From a virus (Duplodnaviria; Caudoviricetes): 41,960 nt of DNA. Position numbers and translations under genes: made by a program. Below the pieces are notes generated by a model. It did no database searches. It saw only the letters and a list, made by a program, of their open reading frames with translations, and was not told the DNA's origin. How positions within the stretch are numbered: the first letter of the stretch is position 1; the number at the start of each line of letters is the position of its first letter. The DNA is taken from the IMG/VR virus record IMGVR_UViG_3300037235_000027, positions 1 through 41,960 of that record. The stretch is one strand, 5' to 3'. Shown here in pieces: positions 2,058-37,887 of this stretch.

Positions 2058-2774
2058 CTACCTGCGTCGCGTAGGATCAACTTCTGGTTGACCACCCGGA
2101 CCCGGACGTTGCGGTGGCCTTCCACCAATTCCACCAGCCGGCGGCTCTGGAATAGTGATCACGACGTAACGATAACCCACACCGGAAATAGCCACAAGTG
2201 CAATGGCTTTGCCAGCAGGGATTTCTGGAGGAAGCGGCGGCCAAATCGTGCCCGGAGGCGGATCAACCGGAGGCGGTTCCTCCCCATCAACCGGAGGCAA
2301 ACTGTTGTCAGGTCTGCCAGGAATTGACGGGAAAATCGGCAGACCATGGCCAGGACGTTCCGGTCTACCACCTACACCCCAACCAGGATCAATCGGAAGT
2401 CCAGCGCCGCCCGGAGGTCGTGGCCACGTATGCGGAGGCCGGGGAGGACGATTGCCAGGACGTTCCGGCCAGAAGTGACCACCACCAGGAAGACCTTGAT
2501 CAGGGTATTCACCTTCATCAACACCGTAATCAGGATCAGTCGGACGACCACCAAAACTTGGAAGACGACCGGGGCGTTCGCCTACGCCACCCCAACCCGG
2601 AAGATGACCAGGCCGCTCGGGGCGACCAGGACGTCCAGGAAGACCTTGACCGGGACGACCAGGCTCATCAATTTCAGGAAGTTCACCTTCATCAATCCCG
2701 TAATCAGGATCAACAGGGCGACCCCAACGGTCACGAGCGGGATGAACCCGCAACCAACCAGAAACTCTAGGCAT
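2058..2774 (-). CDS. Pro/Gly-rich repetitive protein
   Basis: RBS AAGGAGAA; internal repeats P[VT]DPDYG[IV]DEGE and ERPG[HR]xLP; GC-rich. Confidence 0.75.
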   Translation of the reverse strand: MPRVSGWLRVHPARDRWGRPVDPDYGIDEGELPEIDEPGRPGQGLPGRPGRPERPGHLPGWGGVGERPGRLPSFGGRPTDPDYGVDEGEYPDQGLPGGGHFWPERPGNRPPRPPHTWPRPPGGAGLPIDPGWGVGGRPERPGHGLPIFPSIPGRPDNSLPPVDGEEPPPVDPPPGTIWPPLPPEIPAGKAIALVAISGVGYRYVVITIPEPPAGGIGGRPPQRPGPGGQPEVDPTRRR

Positions 2775-10719: not shown

Positions 10720-11087
10720 TTTTGTGTGATGATATTCTACGTGGAATTTTTGTAGAATTATGGTTGTTGAATTTTTGACCAAAATGTCTTGACGGTGGCC
10801 ACCAACTGGTGGGCGCAAACAGGTGAATTTCTGATTCTCCGAAAGCGTCTCCGACGCTTCTGGCTAACCCTAGATCCTCTAGGAAGCTCTAGGAGCTGGG
10901 GGTTTTTTCTAGGCTAGTCGCATAGCTTGCACCGACGAAGGGCTGATGGACGGCCTTCCTAATGCGTTTAAACGCCTATCGCGTTTGCTATGCTGCAATG
11001 TGTCGCCGAGGGCGTTTGGGCCTATTTATTAGATGCCCATAGCTGTTTTTTATTCGCAAAAATCTTTGCTTCTCACGCAAATAGTTG

Positions 11088-11116
11088 TTGCTTTCCTTCG
11101 CGACTAGGAGTAGCTT
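11088..11116 (+). promoter_or_regulatory. sigma70-type promoter with TCCTTCGCGA spacer motif
   Basis: TTGCTT-17 nt-TAGCTT; spacer motif shared with two other promoters. Confidence 0.65.
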
Positions 11117-11181
11117 GTTTCTTGTCGAGAGCGATTGTCGCCCTCGCGGATGGGGCAAGTCCCCGATAGGAGTAGTAGTAA

Positions 11182-11658
11182 ATGGTTGCGAAAAAGGCCT
11201 CCCTAGAGGAGAAGATTGCTGTGGCTGTTGCGCAGGCTCTTGCGCTAAAGACACGCAAGGTGCGCGAGCCGGTGGTTCCAGCAGACGAGCCCGAACACGA
11301 GCGCGTGGCGCGTGTCCTCCGCATACAGAAGGGTATGCGCGGGCAACTGTTGCGGCACCTCATCCGCAAGGGTCCGGGCGTGTTTACCTTCGCGGACATT
11401 AACGCGGTGGAAGGTCTCGACTGGATTTCCGCGTCGAATGTCGGGGCATGTTTCGCGCATATCGCGTGGAAGATGCAAGGCGGGTCCGAGGTTGCAAGCA
11501 AGGCGGTGGCGCCGTGCGGGTACACCCTCGCCGTCGATGGGACGGGCGTTAACGTGCGCGCTATGCTTACGCGCACAAAAGTGGCGAAAAAGGCGCCTGC
11601 GCCGCGCAAGGCTAAGGCTTTGCCCGCGCCGGTGGCAAAGGACACGGACGCCGCGTAA
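11182..11658 (+). CDS. Ala/Lys-rich hypothetical protein (possible DNA binder)
   Basis: AGGAG RBS, own promoter and downstream hairpin; basic AKKAPAPRK tail. Confidence 0.7.
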   Translation: MVAKKASLEEKIAVAVAQALALKTRKVREPVVPADEPEHERVARVLRIQKGMRGQLLRHLIRKGPGVFTFADINAVEGLDWISASNVGACFAHIAWKMQGGSEVASKAVAPCGYTLAVDGTGVNVRAMLTRTKVAKKAPAPRKAKALPAPVAKDTDAA

Positions 11659-11663
11659 AAACT

Positions 11664-11688
11664 GGGAGGGCGCAAGCCCTCCCTCTTT
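11664..11688 (+). terminator. GNRA hairpin, weak terminator
   Basis: GGGAGGGC-GCAA-GCCCTCCC-TCTTT. Confidence 0.6.
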
Positions 11689-11725
11689 CTCTACCCTCGT
11701 ATCTCACTCACCAGGAGTCACCAAA

Positions 11726-11905
11726 GTGGCACACATCTACTCAGGCACCAATAGCCAGCATCGCGAGCCCATCGACCATCTAGAGGATGGCTGGGTGGTC
11801 TACGTCAGCGACGACCAGGTCCAGATCCTTATCATCATGGTTCTTGATGATGAGACTGAATCTGAGTATGAAGCGCGGACTGATCGCTTATCATACTACG
11901 AATAA
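11726..11905 (+). CDS. small acidic protein (59 aa)
   Basis: CAGGAG RBS, GTG start, followed by a terminator. Confidence 0.6.
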   Translation: MAHIYSGTNSQHREPIDHLEDGWVVYVSDDQVQILIIMVLDDETESEYEARTDRLSYYE

Positions 11906-11908
11906 GAT

Positions 11909-11935
11909 GGGGTGGCGCAAGCCACCCTTTTTTTT
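11909..11935 (+). terminator. intrinsic terminator
   Basis: GGGGTGGC-GCAA-GCCACCC followed by T8. Confidence 0.85.
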
Positions 11936-11944
11936 ATCATTATG

Positions 11945-12075
11945 GGTGATATCTGAGAGATGGCGTATGATGCGCACCATTTCTCATATGTCACCACACC
12001 ATCATCATTGGTGATATGTGATATCTGATATCTGACTGATGATATATGATTCCTGATGATATCTGAGATGATATG
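11945..12075. repeat. TGATATCTGA-type degenerate tandem repeats
   Basis: Multiple GATATCTGA/TGATAT copies in non-coding DNA. Confidence 0.65.
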
Positions 12076-14439: not shown

Positions 14440-14513
14440 GCATAATAATTAGATACCAGCATATCAAAATCAGATGCCTTAATTTCGACACATTCAGATG
14501 CTATTAATCATAT

Positions 14514-14756
14514 ATGATTAATGAACATCCAGAAACTGCTCGCCAACGTGCAGCACGTATATGGCGCAATCATCAAATTCAGAAATCCATTACCCAAGAA
14601 CCAGAAGTCACTATACCAGAAGTCACATTGAATGAGATTGAGGCGCGATTCAGAAAAGAAATGAGAGATGCACTCCAACAACACAATAAAAACAAATCAC
14701 TATTACAATATCTGATATTGAAGCTAAAGCAAAGGAAGAGTAAAGATGGCAAGTAA
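14514..14756 (+). CDS. hypothetical protein
   Basis: Overlaps TerS-like start. Confidence 0.6.
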   Translation: MINEHPETARQRAARIWRNHQIQKSITQEPEVTIPEVTLNEIEARFRKEMRDALQQHNKNKSLLQYLILKLKQRKSKDGK

Positions 14757-15390
14757 TGCGTACCATCCTGATGATCAACCAGCCATGCGCGCTGAAGATT
14801 GGGAACGTATGAAATTTGAGCAGCGCCAACAAGCTGAACAAGAACGTATCAGAAAAGCTCAGCAAGATGAAATCAATTGTGAGCTCCATAAAGAACAAAT
14901 TAAAATAAAGGACAAGATCAATTATACTGAAGAATTGGCACAAGAGATATGTGAACGCATTGCTGCTGGTGAATTGCTCATTAATATATGCAAAGATGAG
15001 CACATGCCCACTGTGCGCCGCTGTAATGTGTGGCTGAAGGCCAATGATGATTTCCAAATCCTCTACAGAGATTCAATAAATGATCGCTTATCCATATTTG
15101 AAGAGCAGGTGATCAGTATAGCTGATGATGCGGCGCATGATTTTAGGGAAATAGTGAAAAATGGAAAGACCATCAAAACACAAGATGCTGAAGTGATTGC
15201 CAGAGCCAAGTTGCGCGTCGAAGTGAGATTTAGACATCTCAAAGCTGGTAGGCCAGGCAAATGGGGTGATACCTCAACTCTTATCACTAAGAGTGAAGAT
15301 GAAGCTGCCATTGACAATATGTCAACAGAAGAAATGGAAAAGAAGATTGCTGATCTTGAAGAGAAGGACAATATCATTAAAGTGGTGTAA
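14746..15390 (+). CDS. terS: terminase small subunit-like protein (Sf6/P22-like)
   Basis: YTEELAQEICERIAAGELLINICKDEHMP...W...IADD...ARAKLRVEVR...PGKWGD. Confidence 0.75.
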   Translation: MASNAYHPDDQPAMRAEDWERMKFEQRQQAEQERIRKAQQDEINCELHKEQIKIKDKINYTEELAQEICERIAAGELLINICKDEHMPTVRRCNVWLKANDDFQILYRDSINDRLSIFEEQVISIADDAAHDFREIVKNGKTIKTQDAEVIARAKLRVEVRFRHLKAGRPGKWGDTSTLITKSEDEAAIDNMSTEEMEKKIADLEEKDNIIKVV

Positions 15391-15407
15391 CGAAGTTACG
15401 ATGTTAC
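15386..15407 (+). repeat. 22-bp inverted repeat, left copy (GTAAC/GTTAC iterons)
   Basis: TGTAACGAAGTTACGATGTTAC; 21/22 match to the reverse complement of 16478-16499. Confidence 0.85.
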
Positions 15408-15438
15408 GACCCCTGCGGCAATCCTTCTTACTGGCGCG

Positions 15439-16455
15439 TCAGATGAATCTGTCCCACATTTCTTGGAAGTCTTCTTTGAACCAACATCTGGTAACTACTC
15501 CACCTTTATATCTGTGAGGCTTGTTTCGTATTTGGAATTCACGTAGCATATTGCTAATCATGTTCTTTGTTATTTTGCGTCCTGAATAGTCAATCTCCAA
15601 CTCACCATCTTTGTCCTCTTTTAATTTTGAATAGAGGACATCGTTTGGTATTAAGTCAGTTTTGTACCTATCGAACACTTTCTTGGTATCGCGCAGAACT
15701 GACTCTTTGATATCTGTATCATCATTCTCGTCCATAAAAGCGAGCGCCGCGCTTCTTGCCATTGTACCAGCATTGAATGAATCAGCAATAGCTATAAGTG
15801 GGCGCCACTTATCTGCATCACGTCCTCCTAACTTAGCTGGCATCCATGGATCTGGATTCAAATCCACTTGTTTAGCCCACTTATAGAGTTGTGATGCATA
15901 GTATTGTTCTGCTTCTATGAACCGTTCCATTTTCTTAGTAGAACGATACAGCCTGATGACGAGTGATCGACTCATCAATTGGGATGGCAATCTCCCAATT
16001 CCAGCAAGAGCAACTGGGCCATATACTGGATAAGATATGACTTCACCATCTTTTCCAGTTCTTGTTACTGCTCCACCTCTGCTATGCCCATCATTTAGAA
16101 TAGCTCTCATATTCTTTACGATTGACATGTTATCCACTTCGTCAAGTAATAGTGTATGATTATTCGCTTGACGAAACAGAGATGCTACACTTGGATCAGC
16201 AGTCTTTTTGGGATTCCATACCATTGCAGCAAGTATATCCAAAACTGTGCTTTTTCCACAATTTTGGACCGGACTAAGAATGGCCAGTCTGGGTGACTTG
16301 CTATATTGATGGAAGATATGAGTGTGTAGCGCCCATAAAGCTATTCCCACCAAATAGTGTGGTTTGGTATCCAAATGTCTGCCGAAAACACCTACCAATT
16401 GCATAAGGCCATTTGCATCGCCTTGAGCAGTGGGTTTTCTCTTCGCCACTTCCAT
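15439..16455 (-). CDS. DUF3631-family P-loop NTPase
   Basis: ALWALHTH...PRLAILSP..NCGKST, TLLLDEVD, ILNDGH, GPVALAGIG, SRS. Confidence 0.8.
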   Translation of the reverse strand: MEVAKRKPTAQGDANGLMQLVGVFGRHLDTKPHYLVGIALWALHTHIFHQYSKSPRLAILSPVQNCGKSTVLDILAAMVWNPKKTADPSVASLFRQANNHTLLLDEVDNMSIVKNMRAILNDGHSRGGAVTRTGKDGEVISYPVYGPVALAGIGRLPSQLMSRSLVIRLYRSTKKMERFIEAEQYYASQLYKWAKQVDLNPDPWMPAKLGGRDADKWRPLIAIADSFNAGTMARSAALAFMDENDDTDIKESVLRDTKKVFDRYKTDLIPNDVLYSKLKEDKDGELEIDYSGRKITKNMISNMLREFQIRNKPHRYKGGVVTRCWFKEDFQEMWDRFI

Positions 16456-16477
16456 AACGGTCTCTCCTAAATAAGAT

Positions 16478-16499
16478 GTAACATCGTAACATCGTTACA
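16478..16499 (-). repeat. 22-bp inverted repeat, right copy
   Basis: GTAACATCGTAACATCGTTACA on the + strand. Confidence 0.85.
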
Positions 16500-16552
16500 T
16501 CATTGGCACTATTGCCTAAAAGGATGAAACCGCCTCACAGGTCTATTCACAA

Positions 16553-16564
16553 TGTCAAACAGCA
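16553..16564 (-). promoter_or_regulatory. boxA-like antitermination sequence
   Basis: TGCTGTTTGACA on the minus strand, in the leader of the DUF3631 gene. Confidence 0.5.
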
Positions 16565-16607
16565 AGCCTGATAGTGTTCTCGTTTTGTTTCTTTTGGCCT
16601 AGACCCT

Positions 16608-16636
16608 ATTGTAACATACTTTCGGATCTGACGCAA
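16608..16636 (-). promoter_or_regulatory. sigma70-type promoter of the DUF3631 gene
   Basis: TTGCGT-17 nt-TACAAT; shares TTGCGT and GAAAGTATG with the ligase promoter. Confidence 0.7.
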
Positions 16637-16740
16637 ACCCAGCATAAATAGTGGCGCAACAATGGTGATGATATCTGATAATTGAACATGAGAGATTTGT
16701 GCATGGATTTTGAATCGCCAGAATGCGTCGAAAAAAAGGC

Positions 16741-16769
16741 TTGCCTTCCTTCGCGATTTCGGCTAGACT
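16741..16769 (+). promoter_or_regulatory. sigma70-type promoter of the long rightward operon
   Basis: TTGCCT-17 nt (TCCTTCGCGA...)-TAGACT preceded by an A-tract. Confidence 0.7.
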
Positions 16770-16777
16770 ACCCTCTA

Positions 16778-17333
16778 GCCCGCTATAGGCGCGGGCGAGG
16801 ACTATTTGATCTGACTTCTACTGCGGTTACACTTGACATTCCGCCGAAAGCGGTTCCTGCGGTTTTTGACAGATCCTACTACATGCTGTTTGAAATTCGA
16901 GAGTAGACTTATGCTGGCCGGGCTCGTCCGTGTTCGGGGCCACATTGCTGCGTGAATCAACGCGCAGCAAGTTGTAACGTGAGCAGTAAAGCTATTACTT
17001 GTGAAAGAGCGTAAGTATCACGGGGTTGCGAAGAACAACGCTCTGATACGAAAGGCAAGCGCGCGACAAGTTGCCTGAGGATGTTTGACCAGCCTTAGAT
17101 GCAGGAAAACAGATTTGACGAACTCATGTAACACCCTGTTGAGCCACAAGCAAGAGACAGTGTTTTGAGGGTGCAAACTGGACGGGAACAAAAACCGTAC
17201 GTGGCGAGCAAGGGAACATCCGAAACCCAGACATTGTGCGATAGTGTCTGGTGACCCAAGAATCAAAGACAGCAATACAGAGCACAGCGGGATGAAATAA
17301 CTCCTGCTGTGTTCAATAGTGCTGTCAGCACTA
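16778..17333 (+). ncRNA. large structured leader/ncRNA of unknown class
   Basis: No credible ORF; about ten helices found by eye, including long-range GGATGTT/AACATCC; starts at the predicted +1. Confidence 0.6.
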
Positions 17334-17348
17334 GAAAGGAGAATCAAA

Positions 17349-17786
17349 ATGTCTTATAGAAGTAAAAAGATTCAGAAAGAAAAGCATGAATCGTATTCTG
17401 CGTCATTGCGACAAATAGTTCTCTCAACAACGAGAGATCGTCTGCCACAACAAGACGGATATATTGTGGCCAACAGCGCAAGAATGAAGCGTTCTAAGTG
17501 GCGTATAGCAATTGATCCAGAAAATAGCAAGAAAACGCGAAAGGTTTCAGGATTCAGAATTAAGGTTAAGATTAAGGATACTGATAAAGTTCATAAATAT
17601 AGAGATAACGATCAGAATTTAGGATATATCAGCAAAAAGAAGTATTATGGTAGATTTACAACTAATCCAAAGACCACAGGGCGCGTCTTAGCAGTTATTG
17701 AACAACCAAAGCAAGCTGCGCCTCAAGATTCAGAATATATGCAGATTGATGGTATAACCATCGAAGCAGAGTACACTGAGGAGTAA
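17349..17786 (+). CDS. highly basic hypothetical protein
   Basis: AAGGAG RBS before ATG 17349; K/R-rich. Confidence 0.75.
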   Translation: MSYRSKKIQKEKHESYSASLRQIVLSTTRDRLPQQDGYIVANSARMKRSKWRIAIDPENSKKTRKVSGFRIKVKIKDTDKVHKYRDNDQNLGYISKKKYYGRFTTNPKTTGRVLAVIEQPKQAAPQDSEYMQIDGITIEAEYTEE

Positions 17787-17945
17787 GTAACATGCGTGTG
17801 AAACACTTCGTGCCTTCTAATCAACCTGAGCAGAAGCGCACCAAAATAGAGATTGAACTGCGAATGATGAATAATCGCAGAAAGAAGAGAGGACCCATAA
17901 CACTAAAGCAACTGAACTTCACAAACAAACAACAGGAGAAGTAAA

Positions 17946-18278
17946 ATGGCCGTATATGCGTTTGGACACCCAGGAAAATGGTGGGCCGATGTAATGGGTA
18001 CCAGATACCCTTGCGTTGGCGCAATGCGAATAAAGGATAACCACTACCAACAAGCGTATTCTCTTGATAAAGAGAAGTCGTGGAACCTCATAGAGCAAAT
18101 TGAGGAGCTTCAAAAGGTTATAGTCAGAGAGGAAATACTGCAAGCCAATGGCATCTATAAAGTGATAGGGTATGTTGGCTTATTTCACGTACTCAATTTT
18201 ATAGTAACAATTACTGATACTCACAAGATCGTTGACTTCGATCTTGGTCCGAAAATTGTTACGATCAAAAACCGCTAA
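17946..18278 (+). CDS. hypothetical protein
   Basis: CAGGAGAAGTAAAATG initiation motif. Confidence 0.75.
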   Translation: MAVYAFGHPGKWWADVMGTRYPCVGAMRIKDNHYQQAYSLDKEKSWNLIEQIEELQKVIVREEILQANGIYKVIGYVGLFHVLNFIVTITDTHKIVDFDLGPKIVTIKNR

Positions 18279-18293
18279 CCACAGGAGAGTAAA

Positions 18294-18533
18294 ATGAACA
18301 TCGCAAAGCAACTGACTGAAGACCAAATGTTAGCATACCTTACCCTAAAAGGTGAGGGTAGGCATATCTCACAGGAAATAATTAATGAGATAGGCCGTAA
18401 AGCTGCAGTGAAGCTTATGAAGTTCAGAACTATCCTAAATAAGGATCAGGATTTAGGATGGAAGATTGAAAGTGATGAATCTGATCCCGCCAACAAGTAT
18501 CCGCGATATTTGATATTCACCAAAACAAAATAA
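18294..18533 (+). CDS. hypothetical protein
   Basis: CAGGAGAGTAAAATG initiation motif. Confidence 0.75.
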   Translation: MNIAKQLTEDQMLAYLTLKGEGRHISQEIINEIGRKAAVKLMKFRTILNKDQDLGWKIESDESDPANKYPRYLIFTKTK

Positions 18534-18590
18534 GATCGAAACAGCCAGTGCGATTGGCTGTCCTAGCGTTTGGCGCTAGCTGATGAGATC
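18534..18590 (+). ncRNA. hammerhead ribozyme type II (HH1)
   Basis: GATC-GAAA-[CAGCCAG/TTGGCTG]-TC-[CTAGCG/CGCTAG]-CTGATGA-GATC; GUC cleavage after 18562. Confidence 0.93.
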
Positions 18591-18608
18591 AGTAGCAGGA
18601 GAAGTAAA

Positions 18609-19028
18609 ATGAAGATAGACCTTAACATACACATCATGTCGTGGATGTGTCGCGAAGATGATGTCATCGACCCAGATCTTATCCAACTAAAGAACAATCA
18701 CGAACAAATGATTGTGGATGTTACAGAAAGGATATCAATAAGATTTGATTATCCGCTTTCACATTCTGTTTTGCTACAGTTTGATGGCAAGAAGCCGTGG
18801 AGACTAGCAGATATAATTGATGCTATCTGCGCAGGATATGTGAAGATATATGACGAAGAAGATGAAACAAGAACGCTTCCAGCTAGTGCTCCGTTGGATT
18901 CGATTCTGGTTAATCGTCCGAAAACTGACGGCAAGCACGGCATCTGGGGACACATTCTTAATGATCTCTATATTGAGAGCGTGTACAAAGGATCAGACGG
19001 TGTTTGGTTGCTTGATATTGGATCATAA
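18609..19028 (+). CDS. hypothetical protein between HH1 and HH2
   Basis: CAGGAGAAGTAAAATG; C-terminal GIWGHILNDLYIE. Confidence 0.8.
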   Translation: MKIDLNIHIMSWMCREDDVIDPDLIQLKNNHEQMIVDVTERISIRFDYPLSHSVLLQFDGKKPWRLADIIDAICAGYVKIYDEEDETRTLPASAPLDSILVNRPKTDGKHGIWGHILNDLYIESVYKGSDGVWLLDIGS

Positions 19029-19089
19029 GACCGAAAGGGTGGCGCCACAAGCGCCATTCTCCTAGCGTTAGGCGCTAGCTGACGAGGTC
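19029..19089 (+). ncRNA. hammerhead ribozyme type II (HH2)
   Basis: GACC-GAAA-[GGGTGGCGC/GCGCCATTC]-TC-[CTAGCG/CGCTAG]-CTGACGA-GGTC; CUC cleavage after 19061. Confidence 0.93.
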
Positions 19090-19108
19090 AGTAACCAGGA
19101 GTAGTTAA

Positions 19109-19324
19109 ATGGCACAGGTATATTGGAGCAGCAAATTGCCGTCCAAAGACGATTTTGGTGACACATATGTTGGCATCATGATCGACGGTAAAACTAAAAT
19201 GGGACCATGGGCTAACATGACTCCTACAAGTTGGAAACGTCATGGTATTGGCCGTCTCGGAACTGGCTATGGCCAGAAGTACAAGAGGCAGGCTGATGGC
19301 CGCTGGCTCAAAGTGGAGGGTTAA
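19109..19324 (+). CDS. hypothetical protein
   Basis: CAGGAG RBS; DGKT..GPWANM...GLG.G.GQKY pattern. Confidence 0.75.
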   Translation: MAQVYWSSKLPSKDDFGDTYVGIMIDGKTKMGPWANMTPTSWKRHGIGRLGTGYGQKYKRQADGRWLKVEG

Positions 19325-19325
19325 A

Positions 19326-19676
19326 ATGGCAAGCGTCAAAGTTAAACGAGGATCTGAAGGTCCAGAACACGATCCGTATGCTTTTACGGAGATCACTTTC
19401 TACTTCACCGATCCTGAACGATCAAAAGTCGTTTATCACAGAGGATTAGGTGAGTGGCTCAAATATGATGGTCGAAAATACGACGAAAGTGACGATTGGT
19501 TACCATCGTCAATTGACTATCTATTTAAGCACATAACTGGACTTTCAGTTAGAAAGGCTGAAAGCATTCCAGATATGCTGTTTGAGCGCTCCATGCGGAA
19601 ATATTCCAAAGAAGAGCGCTGGCAGATTATGGAATGCATCGAAGCCGATGAAGCCATGCTCAGAAATTGCTATTGA
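19326..19676 (+). CDS. hypothetical protein
   Basis: GGAGG RBS before ATG 19326. Confidence 0.7.
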   Translation: MASVKVKRGSEGPEHDPYAFTEITFYFTDPERSKVVYHRGLGEWLKYDGRKYDESDDWLPSSIDYLFKHITGLSVRKAESIPDMLFERSMRKYSKEERWQIMECIEADEAMLRNCY

Positions 19677-19680
19677 AATA

Positions 19681-19728
19681 ATTGAACTTAGTGGCGCCAC
19701 AAGCGCCACTCTTTTAGGCAATTTTGCC
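19681..19728 (+). repeat. two-hairpin intergenic element, copy 1
   Basis: ATTGAACTT-[AGTGGCGC/GCGCCACT]-CTTTTA-[GGCA/TGCC]. Confidence 0.75.
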
Positions 19729-19745
19729 AGACTGAGGAGAGTAAA

Positions 19746-20051
19746 ATGAGATACGTTGTTATCAATAGAGCATGTGATGGTACCCATGTTTCAACACATG
19801 CTACGCTTAAAGGAGCGCAGAAGCGTGTGGAAAATATGGTTGGTAAAAGAGAAACGCCATTTCTAGTTGATGTGTCGTATATCTCTGATTGGGGTAATGT
19901 CCTCACAATCGAGGAGCGTCCAGGCAATTGGACTGCGAATACTGAGCGGCGTGTTTCCGAAGCTTTTGATGCTAACGAATGTGGTTTTGCAACAAAAGCT
20001 CAGATCAGGTTGTTGCATGATAAGGGCTTTTTAAGAGAGGAGACTGAATGA
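19746..20051 (+). CDS. hypothetical protein
   Basis: AGGAGAGTAAAATG. Confidence 0.75.
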   Translation: MRYVVINRACDGTHVSTHATLKGAQKRVENMVGKRETPFLVDVSYISDWGNVLTIEERPGNWTANTERRVSEAFDANECGFATKAQIRLLHDKGFLREETE

Positions 20052-20260
20052 ATAATAATCAAGAGTTTAGTATTTGGATGTCAAAGGTAGAATTTTATCT
20101 AGAATCAATGATCAAGAAGTCGTCGCCAGAGTTTGAGTCATACGATTATCATGGCGACTTCAAGAGAGGGGTTCTACCTGAAGATACGGCAACTATCATA
20201 ATACAAAGGAGTGTACAAAATGGCAAAGAAAGATCCATGGATAATATGTCCAGTATGTGA
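20048..20260 (+). CDS. hypothetical protein
   Basis: ATGA coupling, GAGGAG RBS. Confidence 0.6.
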   Translation: MNNNQEFSIWMSKVEFYLESMIKKSSPEFESYDYHGDFKRGVLPEDTATIIIQRSVQNGKERSMDNMSSM

Positions 20261-20519
20261 AGGTGAAGGAAAGACAGTCAATCCGAATATTGACGCAAAC
20301 GGATTGACTGCGGAAGACTTCAATGAAGATCCAGACTTCAGAGAAGACTATATGAGCGGCGTATATGACATTACGTGCGCTGCATGTGGTGGTCAACGCG
20401 TCATCAAGAAGCAGCGAATGAAAGAGCTTGCGCAAAATGCTGAAAATCGTCGTTTGGCAGCGCGCGAAAATGGCGATTATGAAAGCTACAGCGTAGCGCA
20501 TGATTGGAGGTATGGATAA
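20220..20519 (+). CDS. CxxCxG zinc-binding protein
   Basis: CPVCEGEG...GVYDITCAACGG; AAGGAG RBS. Confidence 0.75.
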   Translation: MAKKDPWIICPVCEGEGKTVNPNIDANGLTAEDFNEDPDFREDYMSGVYDITCAACGGQRVIKKQRMKELAQNAENRRLAARENGDYESYSVAHDWRYG

Positions 20520-20698
20520 TGCATATTTTCCTTACCATAATTGTTATCATTGTAATAGTGGTTGTTTTTAGCAACCTAAACCAACAAGGAATGATAACAG
20601 CTTGGAAAGGCCCAAATAACAATCTTGGTTGCATACCATTATTGTTAGTATTCATATTTACTATTTGGGTCCTATGCCAATTACCAGTAATACATTGA
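20519..20698 (+). CDS. small two-TM membrane protein
   Basis: TAATG coupling; two hydrophobic segments. Confidence 0.6.
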   Translation: MHIFLTIIVIIVIVVVFSNLNQQGMITAWKGPNNNLGCIPLLLVFIFTIWVLCQLPVIH

Positions 20699-20747
20699 AC
20701 TTGGTGGCGCTCTTGTGGAGCGCCACTCTTTTAGGTCATTTAGGACC
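20694..20747 (+). repeat. two-hairpin intergenic element, copy 2
   Basis: ATTGAACTT-[GGTGGCGCTC/GAGCGCCACT]-CTTTTA-[GGTC/GACC]. Confidence 0.75.
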
Positions 20748-20764
20748 GTAACCAGGAGAGTAAA

Positions 20765-21022
20765 ATGGATAATCCTACAGTAATGATAGAAATAGAAGTG
20801 GATGCAGTACAAGAAGCTATCCAAACAATCCGAAAAATCAATGGCAAGATTTCTTGGGTTTTGGAAAATAATCCACCATCCAATCAAAAGGATCTTGATG
20901 CTCTACAGTATCGCAACGCCAATCTTACTTTGGTTGAGTTGCGATTGACCAAAGCATTGAGCGATAGAGCTTTGGCCAATCAAGCCAATGGCAATGTCGT
21001 TAGGATGGGAGGCAAGAAGTGA
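20765..21022 (+). CDS. hypothetical protein
   Basis: CAGGAGAGTAAAATG. Confidence 0.75.
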   Translation: MDNPTVMIEIEVDAVQEAIQTIRKINGKISWVLENNPPSNQKDLDALQYRNANLTLVELRLTKALSDRALANQANGNVVRMGGKK

Positions 21023-21264
21023 GAAAGGCTCTATTGGCAGAATATAAAGTCAAGCCAAACGGCACTAAACTCCTTGATGATTTCAGAGGAGACAGAATTT
21101 ATGGTAATTGTTATATTATCATAAAGGCTGGCGTGGAAATCTATGAGGTTATTACCTCAACGCTGGGTGATTGGTGTAATTGCCCAGCCGGACAACATGA
21201 GAAGAAGTGCAAGCATCTTCTTATGGTTTATGATTACAAGGAAAAGGAAGAAAAGGTCATATGA
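21019..21264 (+). CDS. SWIM zinc-finger protein
   Basis: CNCP...CKH. Confidence 0.7.
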   Translation: MRKALLAEYKVKPNGTKLLDDFRGDRIYGNCYIIIKAGVEIYEVITSTLGDWCNCPAGQHEKKCKHLLMVYDYKEKEEKVI

Positions 21265-21485
21265 AATACAATGCGAGGTGTACGCTCCAAGCAGTACACA
21301 TGAAAACTGGTAAAGTAATCGAAGTGTGTCAATTTGATTCCGAAGTAGGAACAAATCCAATTCTTATCGAAGCTGAATCGCAAGAAGAAGCAGATGAGAA
21401 ATGGTCCAAAAGATGTATGCTTGAAGCAATGACAACAGGTGCGCTCCAAGCAAGAAAAGATTTCCAGAAAGGAAAATGGAAATAA
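21261..21485 (+). CDS. hypothetical protein
   Basis: ATGA coupling; TAA abuts HH3. Confidence 0.65.
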   Translation: MKYNARCTLQAVHMKTGKVIEVCQFDSEVGTNPILIEAESQEEADEKWSKRCMLEAMTTGALQARKDFQKGKWK

Positions 21486-21545
21486 GACCGAAACTGGCCG
21501 CAGTGATGCGCCCAGTCGTTGCGTATTGCGCAGCCTGACGAGGTC
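21486..21545 (+). ncRNA. hammerhead ribozyme type II (HH3)
   Basis: GACC-GAAA-[CTGGCCGCA-GTGA-TGCGCCCAG]-TC-[GTTGCG/CGCAGC]-CTGACGA-GGTC; GUC cleavage after 21517. Confidence 0.93.
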
Positions 21546-21565
21546 AGTAACCCAAGGAGACGTTA

Positions 21566-21709
21566 ATGGGCGACCCAGAAGAGCATAAAGAGGAAGAGTT
21601 GACTGTAAAATCTGATGCTCCAAAGGAAGAAGGTCCAAAAACAGAACCAGAAGAAAAAGAGGCGGATCCAGTTCGCCCAGGAGAAGGCGGACAACCTGAA
21701 GTAGCGTAA
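21566..21709 (+). CDS. acidic disordered peptide (47 aa)
   Basis: Manual ORF MGDPEEHKEEEL...PEVA, AAGGAG RBS. Confidence 0.65.
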   Translation: MGDPEEHKEEELTVKSDAPKEEGPKTEPEEKEADPVRPGEGGQPEVA

Positions 21710-21717
21710 AGCGAGTC

Positions 21718-21758
21718 AACTTGCCGCTCCCACGCTCCCGTGTGGGAGCGGTCTTTTA
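21718..21758 (+). terminator. AACTT-hairpin-CTTTTA element
   Basis: GCCGCTCCCAC/GTGGGAGCGGT followed by CTTTT. Confidence 0.65.
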
Positions 21759-21771
21759 CTAGGGATGGAAA

Positions 21772-22023
21772 ATGATAAACATAAAAGAAATCACTTCTAT
21801 GAAAGAGTTTGCTATCATAAGAAGTGCTCTGGAACTATATGTTGCTACTCTGAGTGAAGAGTACGACAGTAAGCAAACACGCCTCAAACTTAAAAAACTT
21901 GAGAAAGCGCAAAAGTGTCTGAAAGACTTCAAACAACTAGGAGAACAAAATGGTAAGACTGTATCAGTTGACACTAAAGCCCTGCCATTGCGGCAGCGGA
22001 CTGGAAAGAGAAGCGCGTTATGA
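21772..22023 (+). CDS. hypothetical protein
   Basis: Operon packing. Confidence 0.55.
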   Translation: MINIKEITSMKEFAIIRSALELYVATLSEEYDSKQTRLKLKKLEKAQKCLKDFKQLGEQNGKTVSVDTKALPLRQRTGKRSAL

Positions 22024-31297: not shown

Positions 31298-32440
31298 ATG
31301 GAATTGGCGAAGTTGTACAAGAAGGATGCGTCTGGTAATACTAGAGTTTGGTGGGCAGAAGTAGGTGAGCATCCGAATGAAGGTTATTGGCGCACCCATT
31401 CTGGTCGTATAGATGGACAAATATCTATATCAGAATGGAAATGGGCTGATCCTAAATCCCAAGATACTGCATACAATCAGGCACTGTTTTATGCCAAATC
31501 AGCTACGGAAAAAAGATTGAAAACTGGAGACTATAAATCTGACGAAGACAATATTGGAGAGCAACGCTCCAGTACAATTAGTCCCATGCTTGCTCAACCT
31601 TACGTAGGTTGGCAACGTACTTGCTACGATCAACCTAAGCTAGATGGTATACGTTGCCTAGCTAATAAAGATGGACTATGGACGCGCACCAATAGACAGA
31701 TAGTCTCAACACCGCATATTGAAGGAACATTGAAGCCATTTTTTATGATATGGCCAAAAATTATTCTTGATGGAGAATTATATAATCATAGTCTACATGA
31801 CAATTTCAACAAGATTATCTCACTCGCTAGAAAGACAACTCCAGACTTTGCAGAGTTGGAAGAGAGTGCAGAGCTTATTGAATATTGGATCTTCGATATG
31901 TACGATCCAGATTATCCTGATTTTACATTTGAAGAGAGATGGTTTTTTCTTCAACTACAAGTATTTGATCTTCATCTTCCTAAGATAATGGAAGTACCAA
32001 CTAAATTAATCAAGACAAAAGACGAACTTGATATACATAATATGGAGTTATTAACTGACGGTTATGAAGGCCAAATTGTGCGCCACAATACACCGTATGA
32101 GCAGAAGCGCACCAATAATCTATTGAAGAGAAAAGAGTATGTAGATCAAGAATTTGAACTTAAAGATATATTGGAAGGGCAAGGACAATGGACTGGCTAT
32201 GCCAAAATAGCTGTGTGTTCTTTAGCAGATGGCAGAGAATTTAGAGCTGGTATAAGTGGCACTCAAGAATTCAATTACCATCTTCTACTGAATAAAGAAA
32301 AATACAAATCAGTTACAGTTAAATATCAGGCATTAACGCCTGATGGCATTCCACGTTTTCCTATTGCGATTAAATTCTATGAAGAATTGTTTGGTGGTTT
32401 AGAAGAGAGAATCAAACCGCGAAAGGATCTGTTCGCATGA
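31298..32440 (+). CDS. lig: ATP-dependent DNA ligase
   Basis: PMLA, QPKLDGIRC (KxDG), LDGELY, IFD, EGQIVR, LLKRK, PRFP. Confidence 0.95.
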   Translation: MELAKLYKKDASGNTRVWWAEVGEHPNEGYWRTHSGRIDGQISISEWKWADPKSQDTAYNQALFYAKSATEKRLKTGDYKSDEDNIGEQRSSTISPMLAQPYVGWQRTCYDQPKLDGIRCLANKDGLWTRTNRQIVSTPHIEGTLKPFFMIWPKIILDGELYNHSLHDNFNKIISLARKTTPDFAELEESAELIEYWIFDMYDPDYPDFTFEERWFFLQLQVFDLHLPKIMEVPTKLIKTKDELDIHNMELLTDGYEGQIVRHNTPYEQKRTNNLLKRKEYVDQEFELKDILEGQGQWTGYAKIAVCSLADGREFRAGISGTQEFNYHLLLNKEKYKSVTVKYQALTPDGIPRFPIAIKFYEELFGGLEERIKPRKDLFA

Positions 32441-33264
32441 GTGACGCACACGCTAGAGACATTATGAATACAGCATCATCTGGTAATATTGTACTAGATG
32501 ATGAACTCCTAAAATTAGGAGGATTGGGAACAGAAAATGTCAAAGCTAAAGATGTTGTCATTCCTCGCTTGGTCATTTTGCAAGCACTATCTCCACAACT
32601 CAATAAAAAGAAAGCTGAGTTTATCGAGGGCGCAGAGATTGGTGATTTTTGTAATGTTGCTACTGGTGACATTTATAAAGAATCAATTCTTGTTGTTCCT
32701 TGCCATTTCGCTACCGCATATATGGAATGGACAAAGAACCGTGGTGGTCTAGCTGGCAATCACGGAGATGATCCTTCAATCTTATCCAAGACAACTCAGA
32801 ATGACAAACGAGAAAACATATTGCCTAATGGCAATGTGATTCAAGAACAAGCACAATGGTTTTGTTTAGTACAAAATGGTGCGCAATGGCAGCGCTCATT
32901 TCTGCCATTAAAGGCAACCAATCTAAAACATAGTCGAAAATGGCTTACTCTTTGCCAAACGGAAACAGTTCAACTTCCGAATGGAGAGTTCTGGAAGCCA
33001 CCTCTTTTTTGGCGTTCTTGGAAGCTCATTATTGTTGACGACAGTAATGACCAAGGAGACTGGGCAACATTCCGTCCAGAAAAAGGTGAATTAATAATGG
33101 ATATTGATCCAAATCGCCAACTTCTTAGAATGTGCAAATCATTCTATGAAGATATTAGAACCGAAAAGGTTAGGCCTGATATTGAACAAACTCAGGACGA
33201 AGGTGGTCCTATTATTGAAGGTACTAGGGCTAAAGGCCCTGATGACAAAGACATACCATTCTGA
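32437..33264 (+). CDS. ssDNA-binding/annealing-like protein
   Basis: IPRL.ILQALSPQ N-terminus; acidic DDKDIPF tail. Confidence 0.6.
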   Translation: MSDAHARDIMNTASSGNIVLDDELLKLGGLGTENVKAKDVVIPRLVILQALSPQLNKKKAEFIEGAEIGDFCNVATGDIYKESILVVPCHFATAYMEWTKNRGGLAGNHGDDPSILSKTTQNDKRENILPNGNVIQEQAQWFCLVQNGAQWQRSFLPLKATNLKHSRKWLTLCQTETVQLPNGEFWKPPLFWRSWKLIIVDDSNDQGDWATFRPEKGELIMDIDPNRQLLRMCKSFYEDIRTEKVRPDIEQTQDEGGPIIEGTRAKGPDDKDIPF

Positions 33265-33275
33265 AAGGAGAAAGC

Positions 33276-33707
33276 ATGTCTGAAGAAAATGTTGAGCGCG
33301 CAACACTAGAAATTGAAAGCCTAATCAAAAATGAAGCGACTAGGCCAAGATTTCTACGCCAAATAGAGGCAATACCAATTAAAGAACCGGAACCAGTGCC
33401 ACAGCCTAAACCTGTAAAAATAGACCATACATACCTGCCTTTGGATGCTCTTGAGGAAGTATCACGTTCTCTTATGTATGGCGCCGCAAAACGAGAAGCA
33501 TGGAACTGGGCTGTAAATCCAATTAGTTGGACAGAACGTTTGGCTAAGGCGCAGCGCCACTTGTTTGAGTTCCAGAAAGGACATAATATTGATCCTGCTT
33601 CTGGAGAAGCGCAGCTTCAGCATCTTGCGTGCGCAATAACTCAACTTATGTTCTTGCAGTCATATGTTATAAATGACGCAGGAACGGACGATAGATTCAA
33701 GCGGTAA
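33276..33707 (+). CDS. dATP/dGTP diphosphohydrolase (DUF5664)
   Basis: LP.DAL.EV...L.YGA.K...NW...RHL..F..G..ID..SG...HLA.A. Confidence 0.8.
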   Translation: MSEENVERATLEIESLIKNEATRPRFLRQIEAIPIKEPEPVPQPKPVKIDHTYLPLDALEEVSRSLMYGAAKREAWNWAVNPISWTERLAKAQRHLFEFQKGHNIDPASGEAQLQHLACAITQLMFLQSYVINDAGTDDRFKR

Positions 33708-33820
33708 TATTTATGGCGCGATCAGGCTACAGAAGCTTGGTGAGTGGACCTTATGCTTCGAGGACTAATTCCAGGAAAGTGGGAGGCAGCTTTCACTGGC
33801 GCGCCTATTTGGAGGTTTAA

Positions 33821-34042
33821 ATGGATCATCATGAAGAGTTTGAATGTGAAGATTGTCATTGCCGTGTGTTTAGATGGCCACTCATTCCCAAACCAGAAAG
33901 TGGAATCAAACATAGCGCATTTAATGGAGATCGCTGTGCCGTTTGTCAATGGATACATGATCAACCAAATCTGACTGAAAAAGAAATAGCTGAGATACGT
34001 TTGATCACTGCTACACCAATCTTGGAGAAGAATGATGACTAA
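33821..34042 (+). CDS. CxxC hypothetical protein
   Basis: GGAGG RBS; CEDC, CAVC. Confidence 0.6.
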   Translation: MDHHEEFECEDCHCRVFRWPLIPKPESGIKHSAFNGDRCAVCQWIHDQPNLTEKEIAEIRLITATPILEKNDD

Positions 34043-34772
34043 AGAGGCTATATCAAAGTCTTATATGGATGCGCAAAAAATTCTCCATTCTGGAAAGCAA
34101 ACTCCGCCATTGATTGAAAGACTAATTGCAGTTACTGGCGCAGCCAAAGAGGGATCTATTGGTGAAGCTATCAAAGAAAGATTCACTGCTAAATCATTTG
34201 ACATAGAAGATGTTAGAGATGGAGAATACGATTTTACTGGTTTTACAGATTTAGTTATGTGTCATGGATACACATATATGGATTGGTTAGAAGAAGTTCC
34301 TGATGAGGAAGCTGAAAATATCATCAACATTAATTTATATGGATCTATAAGAGTGATCAAACAGTTTGTTAACCAGACTATAGATGAGCCATTTCGCAAA
34401 AAGATCATCTCTATAGGTTCAATGGCATATAATCATGTGCTTAATGGAAGTGCAGCATATTGCGCGTCCAAAGCAGGGTTGAATCATTACATTAGATGCG
34501 CTGCATGGGAGTTAGCGCCAAAAGCATATGATGTCTATTGCATTAATCCTTCCAATGTATTAGATAGTCCTATGACAAGAGATACTATCAATCATCTTAT
34601 GAACTATAGGCAATTAACTCTGGAACAGGCATTAGAATATTGGGGTGCAAATAATCCAAGAACAGTGTTTTTGACAAAGAATGAGATTGTAGATACAGTT
34701 CAACATTTGCTGTTTGTTGATAAAGGCTATCTTTCTGGAAATCCTATTGATTTAGCAGGTGGACAACGCTAA
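34032..34772 (+). CDS. short-chain dehydrogenase/reductase
   Basis: VTG...SIG, INLYG, IGS, YCASK (YxxxK), INP, G..I...GG. Confidence 0.85.
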   Translation: MMTKEAISKSYMDAQKILHSGKQTPPLIERLIAVTGAAKEGSIGEAIKERFTAKSFDIEDVRDGEYDFTGFTDLVMCHGYTYMDWLEEVPDEEAENIININLYGSIRVIKQFVNQTIDEPFRKKIISIGSMAYNHVLNGSAAYCASKAGLNHYIRCAAWELAPKAYDVYCINPSNVLDSPMTRDTINHLMNYRQLTLEQALEYWGANNPRTVFLTKNEIVDTVQHLLFVDKGYLSGNPIDLAGGQR

Positions 34773-35332
34773 TGTCTGATACAGAAGATGTCCGTGATAT
34801 GTTCGGATTCATAGCTCCGTCAGAGGCGCAGCTATCATCTATTTCTAAATGGGCACAAAAAGCCCTAGAGCTTCATGCTGAGATAGAACAAGCTGAAGCG
34901 CACCTTAAGGAGTTGAATAGAGAATTAGCCCAAATAGAAGAAATTGATCTGCCTAGAGCTATGATGACAGCAGGCTCTGCCGAATTCAAAATGGTAGGTG
35001 GTGGTAAGATAACTATTAGTGATGAGATTCAAGGCAGTCTTGCCAAAGGTGAAGAGAAACGAGAATATGCTATTGATTGGGTAGCTAAAAATGATGGAGC
35101 AGATCTTATTAAAAGGCATTTTGAAATTGACTATACAAGAGGTCAACTTTCCTATGCTACAGCATTTCGTGAACTTCTGCAAAAGAATCAAGTGCATTTT
35201 GATGAGTTCGAATCAATACATACCAGCACATTTAAGTCGTTCTTACATGAGAAGCTAAGAAAAGGTGTAATGCCACCTTTTGATAAGATGGGCTTTCGCT
35301 ACTTCAAAAAAGCTAACATCAAGACAAAGTAA
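34772..35332 (+). CDS. conserved phage replication-region protein
   Basis: Coiled coil, LP..M...G, IH..T..SF..E pattern. Confidence 0.75.
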   Translation: MSDTEDVRDMFGFIAPSEAQLSSISKWAQKALELHAEIEQAEAHLKELNRELAQIEEIDLPRAMMTAGSAEFKMVGGGKITISDEIQGSLAKGEEKREYAIDWVAKNDGADLIKRHFEIDYTRGQLSYATAFRELLQKNQVHFDEFESIHTSTFKSFLHEKLRKGVMPPFDKMGFRYFKKANIKTK

Positions 35333-35341
35333 GAGCTAGTC

Positions 35342-36223
35342 ATGACAGAGATCCATATAATCGGTGCGGGTATGGCAGGACTATTGGCAGCCAATATTCT
35401 GAGGCGCCACAAAGTAACTGTACTTGAAAAACAAAAGGAATTGCCTAACAATCATCATGCTGTATTGCGCTTCAAATCAGATGAGATTGGACATCTATTG
35501 GGTATTACATTTAAAAAAGTTAATATGATCAAGACAGTTGCATCATATACTAACAATATAGTGGCAGATAGTCTGTCCTATTCAAAGAAAGTAACTGGCA
35601 AATATTTGTCAAATAGATCAATTATTGATGGAACTGTTACTGCTGAGCGTTGGATTGCTCCAGAAAATCTAATCGAACAGATGGCAGAGACTGTTCTTAT
35701 TTCATTCAATACAGAATGGACACCTAGAGTAAAAGCTCAAATTCCAATTCCTGTTATATCGACTATACCTATGCCACAATTAATGAATATACTAGGTTAT
35801 GAATGTAAAGAATTTTTCACAAATATACCAGGTATAGTATTTACTGGTACAATACAAAATTGTGATGCTTATTGTTCTATTTTATTTCCTGGACCAGAAC
35901 CATTTAGTCGCGCCACTATTACTGGAGATCAATTAATAATAGAATTTCCAGGTATGGAAGAAGTACCAGAAAGTTTGGATATAGCTAAAGCCTATTGGCA
36001 ATTAGGTTTTTCTGATGCTGTTATTCTTGACGCAGAATTCAGTAATCAGCCATACTTCAAAATTACAGAGATAGATGAAGCAGAAAGAAAAGCATTCCAA
36101 CGTTGGGCAACTGTCACGTACGGGATCTATTCTCTTGGTCGCTACGCGACTTGGAGACCAAAATTACTACTTGATGATCTCGTAGATGATATTCGCAAAA
36201 TAGAAGGATGGATCTGCAAATGA
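35342..36223 (+). CDS. FAD/NAD-binding oxidoreductase (UDP-galactopyranose mutase-like ends)
   Basis: IIGAGMAGLLAA Rossmann motif, ISTIPMP, SLGRYATWR. Confidence 0.8.
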   Translation: MTEIHIIGAGMAGLLAANILRRHKVTVLEKQKELPNNHHAVLRFKSDEIGHLLGITFKKVNMIKTVASYTNNIVADSLSYSKKVTGKYLSNRSIIDGTVTAERWIAPENLIEQMAETVLISFNTEWTPRVKAQIPIPVISTIPMPQLMNILGYECKEFFTNIPGIVFTGTIQNCDAYCSILFPGPEPFSRATITGDQLIIEFPGMEEVPESLDIAKAYWQLGFSDAVILDAEFSNQPYFKITEIDEAERKAFQRWATVTYGIYSLGRYATWRPKLLLDDLVDDIRKIEGWICK

Positions 36224-36483
36224 AAAAACATGGTCTAGGCGACGGTCCAATAGAACCAGAATATAAACAGAAAATGAATGAACTAGCTATGTTCATTGAT
36301 AGATACTTTAATGAGGATCCAAAAGATAAGAGAGTAGGTTTTTGTCTGATGGTCTTCAATTTTGGTGGAGGTCCTGGGCGCGCCAACTACATCTCCAATG
36401 CTGTTCGCAAAGATGTAGTCACATTGCTTAAAGAACAATTGGCTCGTTTTGAAGGTATGCCAGATCAAACAGGGAGAGCGTGA
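36208..36483 (+). CDS. hypothetical protein
   Basis: GF.L.VF.F...NYISN..R; operon packing. Confidence 0.7.
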   Translation: MDLQMKKHGLGDGPIEPEYKQKMNELAMFIDRYFNEDPKDKRVGFCLMVFNFGGGPGRANYISNAVRKDVVTLLKEQLARFEGMPDQTGRA

Positions 36484-36686
36484 TGACATTCGAGCAACTA
36501 CTAAAGAAAGCTGAAGAAGAAGCCAACGAGCATGAGTTGGTAACATTAGATGTTAAACAAATAAGAAGTTTTCTTGATGGACATAGTGTATTGGAAGAAC
36601 TTGATAGTGCTTTAGATTGGGCGCAAGGTGCAGTCCATTCTAAAGAAGTGAGAATTTCTTACATTCTTATCAAAGTAGTAGAATAG
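36480..36686 (+). CDS. hypothetical protein
   Basis: GTGA coupling. Confidence 0.6.
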   Translation: MMTFEQLLKKAEEEANEHELVTLDVKQIRSFLDGHSVLEELDSALDWAQGAVHSKEVRISYILIKVVE

Positions 36687-36695
36687 GAGGCAAAA

Positions 36696-36944
36696 ATGAT
36701 CAAAGCTACCGCAAAACAGGCTAATGGAAAAGATCTATTGATAATTGGTCTAAGTTTTGGAAACCTTGATAAATTCCGTGCTGAGCCAGGAGATACATTC
36801 ATCAAAATTCTTGGTGAAAATATGGGCATATCTATGGATGTTCTGATATTCTCTGGTCAAACTGAAGCACATATGCAAGGTTTAATGTCAAAAGTGATCG
36901 GACCAGATACTAAAGTTCATATTGATCCAAAACTAAAGAGCTAA
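36696..36944 (+). CDS. hypothetical protein
   Basis: AGGAGG RBS. Confidence 0.7.
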   Translation: MIKATAKQANGKDLLIIGLSFGNLDKFRAEPGDTFIKILGENMGISMDVLIFSGQTEAHMQGLMSKVIGPDTKVHIDPKLKS

Positions 36945-36956
36945 TGGAGGTAGCAA

Positions 36957-37700
36957 ATGCGAGTGACTCTATTTGATGGAACAGGCTTTGGCTCTCCAAA
37001 TCCAGAGCGCCACGCAGCTAATGTGATTGTCTTCACGAGAAACACTCGATTAAAAATGACTCCGGAAGGTATGGCTTCTATTCAAGAAAAGCCAGATTAT
37101 GAAATTTTAAAGGAACTCAAAGAGGCAGCTAATACGCTGCCTTCATCATGGGAATTTGTGACATTCTCATTTTTAATCCAAGGTGTCACAAGAGCGTTTA
37201 CACATCAATTGGTGCGCACCAGACAAGCTGGTTATGCTCAACAAGCTCTGCGCATTGTAGAAGTGTCAGATTTTGAATACTCAACAGGACCAACAATAGC
37301 AAACGATAGATTGATAAAAGGTGCATATCATAATACAATGGATAATGCATTTCAATGTTATAAGTTCTTGATAGAAGCAGGTGCCAGTACTGAAGATGCA
37401 CGTGGTGTACTACCCTTGAATATACATACAAATATTTGTATGTATATCAATATGCGAAACTTCATTAATCTAACCAGAAAGCGTGTCAGTAAACGAGTTC
37501 AAGATGAATATAGAGGTGTACTTGATGCTTGTATAATGGAAATAGAAAAAACATATCCATGGTTCTATCTATTCTACAAGAATGACGCATTCAAAGCCAG
37601 AAAAGATTTGCAGGATATGATATGGGAAAATAAGTATCTTACTCCTGAAGACAAAACAAACATGGTCAAGAAGCTCGATATAATGATGCCGGACTTGTAA
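36957..37700 (+). CDS. thyX: flavin-dependent thymidylate synthase-like (atypical motif)
   Basis: EF.TFSF.I.GVTRAFTHQLVRTR, EDARGVLP, N.R, R...R.Q.E. Confidence 0.85.
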   Translation: MRVTLFDGTGFGSPNPERHAANVIVFTRNTRLKMTPEGMASIQEKPDYEILKELKEAANTLPSSWEFVTFSFLIQGVTRAFTHQLVRTRQAGYAQQALRIVEVSDFEYSTGPTIANDRLIKGAYHNTMDNAFQCYKFLIEAGASTEDARGVLPLNIHTNICMYINMRNFINLTRKRVSKRVQDEYRGVLDACIMEIEKTYPWFYLFYKNDAFKARKDLQDMIWENKYLTPEDKTNMVKKLDIMMPDL

Positions 37701-37701
37701 A

Positions 37702-37887
37702 ATGCCAATACCAAAACTAAGTTGGTCAGAATCAAAAGCACTAGATGTTTCAGCTTGCTATCAGATGGGAAAGATGGCTCGCCAAAGGAAAGTGCCAAAG
37801 GAAGATAATCCTTGGATGCCTTTATCTCAATTTGCTATATATTGGGATAAAGGCTGGGATGATGAGGACAATCTAATCAATCAATGA
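37702..37887 (+). CDS. Rmf/CrpP-fold-like small protein
   Basis: YQMG..A.......NPW......W..GW. Confidence 0.5.
   Translation: MPIPKLSWSESKALDVSACYQMGKMARQRKVPKEDNPWMPLSQFAIYWDKGWDDEDNLINQ

Follow-up and report, generated by a model that had tools for sequence, protein, structure and literature searches.

Few large RNAs of ornate structure occur in bacteria; among these, ROOL, GOLLD and OLE have recently been shown to form RNA-only assemblies. ROOL and GOLLD are described in PMC12286853 as large, abundant, phage-borne ncRNAs with many helices, predicted loop-loop pairings and a variable internal segment; for bridge B3 of OLE, section 8 of that article describes an intermolecular palindrome switch of the same kind as the one discussed below. 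The DNA-virus motifs listed in PMC10690425 are 29-151 nt long, and clustered type II hammerheads are reported to cut prophage polycistrons (PMC3088659). The region analyzed here, located at the head of an operon in a virus record of 41,960 bases (hereinafter, the window), is a real, strongly conserved and expressed non-coding stretch of ~490 to 550 bases and likely a new large folded ncRNA, of a family absent from Rfam (Table 1). It resembles ROOL and GOLLD in being large and phage-borne, with many predicted helices and loop-loop pairings and a variable insert. Literature searches, which match words and not sequence, retrieved no description of this RNA.

Table 1. Features of the RNA region and the downstream operon (window positions)
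Feature	Positions	Strand	Basis or remarks
Sigma-70-type promoter, alphaproteobacterial style	16738..16777	+	Sequence; predicted +1 near 16777
5' hairpin	16778..16796	+	RNA contigs start inside the loop, at 16788
RNA-supported body of the ncRNA, ~485 nt	16788..17270	+	RNA contigs, 4/4 runs
5' domain	16794..16915	+	Prediction of a long helix (16794-16807/16901-16915) that stacks on 16808-13/16870-75
Variable insert	16942..17008	+	One hairpin, of a different sequence in the relative, and another small one
Conserved core	17009..17254	+	Four predicted helices, pseudo-twofold, GAAA and UGA linkers
Loop of helix B	17059..17070	+	Palindromic tetramer 17062-65: CGCG here, CAUG in L002
Very stable 3' hairpin	17268..17333	+	17268-17326, with alternative palindrome 17317-33
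145-aa basic protein	17349..17786	+	RBS 17336-41; small unnamed family, motif NLGY..K..GRFT.NP
Type II hammerhead motif 1	18534..18590	+	Predicted cut after 18562; kept in L154
Type II hammerhead motif 2	19029..19089	+	Predicted cut after 19061
Type II hammerhead motif 3	21486..21545	+	Predicted cut after 21517

Genomic setting and promoter

The window is ~50% complete and a related record, G001, is 65% complete; at this completeness, neither contains any tRNA genes. Among the genes of the window are those for the terminase, portal, primase, ligase and ThyX. Cultured phages are remote, with terminase identity of 27-34% among the best 25 matches listed. The search stretch matched 24 sequencing runs, 23 of which are labelled soil metagenome, most of them with only a small share of the stretch; two DNA runs contain 0.99-1.00 of the words of 16700-17800 and may represent the source sample. 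The ncRNA region is flanked on one side by a DUF3631 gene, which is divergent, and on the other by a series of small plus-strand genes.

The promoter consists of a -35 box TTGCCT (16741-46), a 17-nt spacer and a -10 box TAGACT (16764-69), in agreement with the first-pass annotation, which had predicted a good promoter at this position, and all 40 of its bases are identical in the relative L002; it is absent from the list produced by an E. coli-type promoter scan. These boxes resemble the alphaproteobacterial consensus elements given as cTTGcc in PMC9549626 and as GCtAxA(a/t)C in PMC5324124, and this resemblance is the one basis on which the host is likely to be an alphaproteobacterium. No credible ORF lies inside the region, as had also been noted: the longest plus-strand frame within the region has 40 codons and a TTG start, with no Shine-Dalgarno-like site, and a minus-strand frame of 109 codons is not kept in the relative.

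Several other features of the window deserve mention. The DUF3631 gene (15439-16455) is 62% identical to its counterpart in L002 (1100-2113), compared to 84-97% for the flanking genes, a divergence pointing to a putative exchange directly beside the invariant promoter. Short repeats containing TGATATCTGA are present at 11935-12068, where an intergenic gap precedes the primase end, and one similar word is found at 16650-16680, upstream of the RNA promoter; these repeats are possible protein-binding sites. A second promoter of the same style (36026-36056, plus strand), conserved and also present in L354, precedes an unannotated gap before ThyX. The gene cluster at 32437-41760 encodes a dATP/dGTP diphosphohydrolase, a short-chain reductase, an FAD-type oxidoreductase, ThyX, a methyltransferase and an exonuclease, which is suggestive of a DNA base-modification pathway. 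Two GC-rich islands, 2058-2774 (minus strand) and 11000-12000, have a GC content of 56-57% against ~40%; the former is a repeat-rich ORF between the portal and terminase genes that is 67% alike in the relative.

RNA coverage and conservation

Expression was examined over 14500-22000 in four of the five RNA runs, from four studies (X20 was left out); the query by which these runs were retrieved, 16700-17800, spans the promoter and the 145-aa gene as well. In all four, contigs occur only on 16788-17272 of this 7.5-kb stretch. The five contigs are at least 99% alike and have depths of 3.6 to 12.4; neither strand nor level nor a true end can be read from contigs. In three runs the cover stops at 17272, and in two it starts at 16788. 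Neither the promoter nor the 145-aa gene has contig cover, which is not proof of silence. Transcription of the region, one of the proposals made from the letters, is borne out by these soil metatranscriptomes; the proposed length of ~570 nt is not, given that the RNA-supported body comprises ~485 nt; the first hairpin and the two final helices fall on or outside its boundaries. In run X5, adapter letters directly follow 17272, and the adapter starts with the same two letters, so that the true fragment end would lie near 17270. At each of the two contig edges lies a hairpin, which could influence where library fragments end; hence the full RNA may span ~16777 to 17326, with its ends lost in library making. 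The plus strand is indicated by the promoter, by the G-U pairs and by folding that is better than that of the reverse strand.

Three distinct copies of the RNA were found, namely those in the window, L001 and L002. The window and L001 differ by one base, a G-C to G-U change in helix B, and L151 is identical to L002 across the RNA and was not counted separately. Compared with L002, differences are found in 5 of 98 columns at 16778-16875, 47 of 133 at 16876-17008, 13 of 266 in the core (17009-17270) and a single one of the 65 columns of the 3' hairpin. In six neighbouring genes, 54 of the 240 fourfold sites differ from the relative, a total that leaves out the DUF3631 gene because of its greater divergence (32 of 78). 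The low column differences, set against these fourfold sites, imply that this non-coding stretch is under strong purifying selection.

Further searches for homologs added no new copies. BLAST against phages returned one record with 27 matching bases, and against plasmids, none. After screening, pattern searches of viral contigs (67, 6, 74 and 79 loci) led to nothing but the same copies, as did a pattern search of genome contigs (at least 120 loci, 36 of the 64 parts covered) and the protein-led scans, in which there were no distant loci; the candidate L152 was dropped, its likeness being limited to a single short peptide from an unrelated frame. Among the 401 whole genomes searched in the order of G003, one has a 29-base match that the model R1 did not score, and a further sample of five genomes gave no match. 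Two samples of 151 genomes each, searched with R1, a model built on near-identical sequences, yielded no hits.

Predicted fold of the RNA

All ten helix pairs named in the first-pass annotation are present at their places, including GGATGTT 17079/AACATCC 17215, CACCCT 17132/AGGGTG 17168 and CCAGACA 17227/TGTCTGG 17245, and the helix-GAAA-helix-TGA repeat occurs twice (17044-17078 and 17215-17254). The 568-nt stretch has a z-score of -3.25 (1 of 100 shuffles equally good) and the 3' hairpin reaches -8.07; the expressed body (16788-17270), at -0.19 (-0.45 in the relative), folds no better than its shuffles. The core (17009-17260) has a z-score of -2.28, and 120-nt windows in nearby coding DNA also reach -3 to -4. 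The folding signal comes from the separate 3' hairpin, not from the expressed body. The region is more than chance by conservation and by RNA cover, and only partly so by folding energy.

A model of 92 pairs is fully paired in all three copies, including two double changes. It was fitted on these same sequences, and its covariation as a whole, a proposed check on homologs, is insignificant (52 of 500 shuffles as good) because there are only three distinct copies, two of which are one base apart. Outside the replaced insert, 12 of the 30 differing columns fall in model helices, where all remain paired, and 18 in loops or linkers. The best local case for structure is the outer helix of the 5' domain, in which 6 of 13 pairs vary and all remain paired, two through changes on both sides; a 6-bp part with the two double changes was matched by 2 of 60 column shuffles. 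The helices of this domain enclose two further predicted stems. An 11-bp helix (16788-98/16924-34) that begins exactly at the 5' end of the RNA contigs is invariant and overlaps the outer helix, for which there is better support; it was kept as an alternative only. The variable insert is predicted to form a hairpin of 8-10 bp at the same place in each variant, with its own sequence.

The conserved core comprises the predicted helices A (17015-49), B (17053-76), C (17079-17221, branched) and D (17227-51). Tandem G.A junctions, as suggested for the linkers, are consistent with the sequence, which is invariant there in the relative. The change from CGCG to CAUG in the loop of helix B, at adjacent bases, accounts for the only two L002 changes between 17013 and 17143. 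This switch fits a 7-bp kiss with loop D (17234-40) and, equally, a 5-bp pairing with the insert (16961-65) or a self-complementary kiss between two molecules; given two adjacent base changes, a palindrome-to-palindrome outcome has a chance of ~1 in 3. Seen in one relative, the switch gives a hint of a possible intermolecular kiss.

The RNA contigs end at the base of the 3' hairpin, which carries no U tract and is likely to be a processing signal or the 3' boundary. A perfect 17-base palindrome (17317-17333), invariant in L002, lies just ahead of the RBS; it may serve as an operator in the DNA or, once the transcript is cut at 17270, fold as an alternative RNA hairpin.

Known RNA classes and alternative readings

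No Rfam family matches the window at the gathering threshold, and none matches 17000-17290 at E 10. The only match at E 10, MIR535 on the 3' hairpin (E 0.28), was dismissed as chance. With RNA contigs limited to the region, strong conservation and this outcome of the Rfam comparison, which had been set as a check, the designation of the RNA as a large unclassified ncRNA is supported; the statement that it is not a tRNA or tmRNA likewise agrees with the lack of an ARAGORN or Rfam call. RNase P, group I and II introns and HDV-like ribozymes were rejected for lack of Rfam matches and of core elements. Models of ROOL (RF03087), OLE (RF01071) and HEARO (RF02033) found no match at E 10, with no positive control signal in the single-family searches for ROOL and OLE, and the model of the conserved GOLLD 3' domain (RF02032) scored eight candidates, none at E 10. 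Like HEARO, or omega RNA, the present RNA is structured and lies directly ahead of a basic ORF, and two short HEARO words occur in the helix C domain. Unlike in HEARO, the downstream ORF has no IscB, HNH or RuvC match; with the HEARO core elements also missing, this candidate was rejected.

The three hammerhead motifs of the downstream operon carry the full core and three stems (GAAA, stem III, UH, stem I, CUGANGA and an open stem II), and each is located immediately upstream of an RBS, with ATAA and AGTA on its flanks. Motifs 1 and 2 are kept in the relative, and the pattern of motif 3 has no match in G001. The Rfam model RF02276 scored none of the three, even at E 10; because Rfam misses these textbook motifs, its silence on the large RNA is compatible with a remote kinship. 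The arrangement is like the prophage-operon clusters of PMC3088659 (RF02276), the large RNA itself being no hammerhead, and by this likeness the phage likely cuts its early transcript into pieces, which fits the release of a leader RNA. The stem III hairpin of motif 2 (19039-19065) recurs without a core at 19691-19717, and part of it (19702-19724) is found again at 20719-20741; possibly, these pieces are decayed or reused intergenic elements.

Taken together, the best explanation, with a probability of roughly 0.55, appears to be a leader-derived, free, folded RNA of a new family that possibly self-assembles. A host-type promoter would likely drive the region as the first part of the phage early transcript, which likely would be cut or stabilised at the base of the long hairpin near 17270; that an enzyme of the RNase III type makes this cut is a guess from substrate geometry. 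The freed RNA would then likely act as a folded structural RNA and may self-assemble through the palindromic CGCG/CAUG loop. We infer the strand, the start site, the cut, the fold and action in trans. That the RNA is discrete and abundant is highly probable, and a trans-acting structural role is somewhat favoured; the least certain step, an RNA-only oligomer by analogy with ROOL, GOLLD and OLE, is possible but doubtful.

Rather than acting in trans, the region could work in cis, as a leader by which the early operon is controlled or stabilised; the observed RNA would then be a stable leftover. In favour of this, the region starts after the promoter and ends before the first RBS, the genes follow with no intervening terminator, and another fold available to the 3' hairpin adjoins the RBS. 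The absence of plus-strand terminators from 15500-19500 (both terminator-like sites in the scan are on the minus strand and located elsewhere) also leaves nothing to override and, with the 3' hairpin lacking a U tract, gives no support to the antiterminator leader envisaged in the first-pass annotation; moreover, the RBS is outside strong stems in both folds, and the conserved core is far bigger than a switch requires and accumulates without mRNA, which makes a cis-acting leader unlikely. The same annotation had raised the prospect of an RNP, in which the RNA would be a scaffold for the basic 145-aa protein that folds upon binding. The protein is indeed basic (31 K+R and 18 D+E of 145 residues; pI 9.9), its gene is adjacent to and co-oriented with the RNA in both phages, the AlphaFold model is mostly coil (pLDDT 61, pTM 0.21; too poor for a fold search), and a short motif is invariant across 13 aligned proteins (alignment A4, from which P0009, a 2576-aa protein with a 21-residue match, was excluded). 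Against the RNP, basic charge is common (the net charge of this protein ranks 4th among the 48 ATG frames of 100 aa or more), and the protein, with 84% amino acid identity to the relative, diverges faster than the RNA, so that this reading is rather improbable. Pfam and PHROG (at 0.001) assigned the protein to no family, the ESM Atlas gave no usable match, and it was found in none of the 301 genomes of a whole-genome sample.

The remaining two readings dispense with a structural RNA altogether or endow it with catalysis. A conserved DNA element, such as an origin or a protein-binding array with incidental transcription, would suit the location near the primase and DUF3631 genes, where the GC skew switches, and the perfect palindrome ahead of the RBS. 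Yet the changes keep G-U pairs, which is sensible for one RNA strand only, DNA carried over into the RNA libraries would also cover the flanks, and no iteron-like direct repeats are seen among the largest 20 of 39 repeat families; a DNA element is thus very improbable. The UGA-helix-GAAA units, with junction letters identical to the stem II side of the three nearby hammerheads, could reproduce the tandem G.A half of a hammerhead core in a new catalytic RNA that cuts its own end, as the sharp RNA contig ends would allow. Both junctions lack the CUGA half and a cleavable NUH triplet of the core consensus, the contig ends are away from them and no ribozyme family matches, which leaves self-cleavage extremely improbable.

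Altogether, the free structural RNA proposed here most plausibly works like the ornate phage RNAs, by analogy, even though their Rfam models do not match it. At ~485-550 nt, it is shorter than ROOL and GOLLD, with 574 model positions and over 800 nt, and it heads an operon instead of lying in a tRNA island, their usual setting. ROOL and GOLLD are discrete RNAs of high abundance; here, the contigs are confined to the region in all four runs and give neither level nor strand. The RNA is similar to OLE in size class and in having a palindromic tetramer that switches between variants (one switch in one relative); unlike OLE, it is phage-borne and unmatched by RF01071, and no known OLE partner genes are among the 30 and 35 proteins scanned. 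The lack of homologs lowers the value of the finding. A bolder reading, speculative and on balance unlikely, would see in this RNA the first example of an ornate phage RNA class that is new, with a pseudo-twofold tandem-G.A core, freed from a ribozyme-punctuated early operon and built into an RNA-only oligomer through its palindrome, perhaps loaded with the disordered basic protein of the adjacent gene, and serving host takeover or as a shield against the host early in infection. The RNA is short enough to synthesise, four independent libraries hint at where its natural ends lie, and the prediction is sharp: oligomers should depend on a four-base palindrome that is swappable between two natural variants. 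The set of ornate RNAs that includes ROOL, GOLLD and OLE would gain a representative that originates as an operon leader, in a soil phage whose host is likely an alphaproteobacterium.
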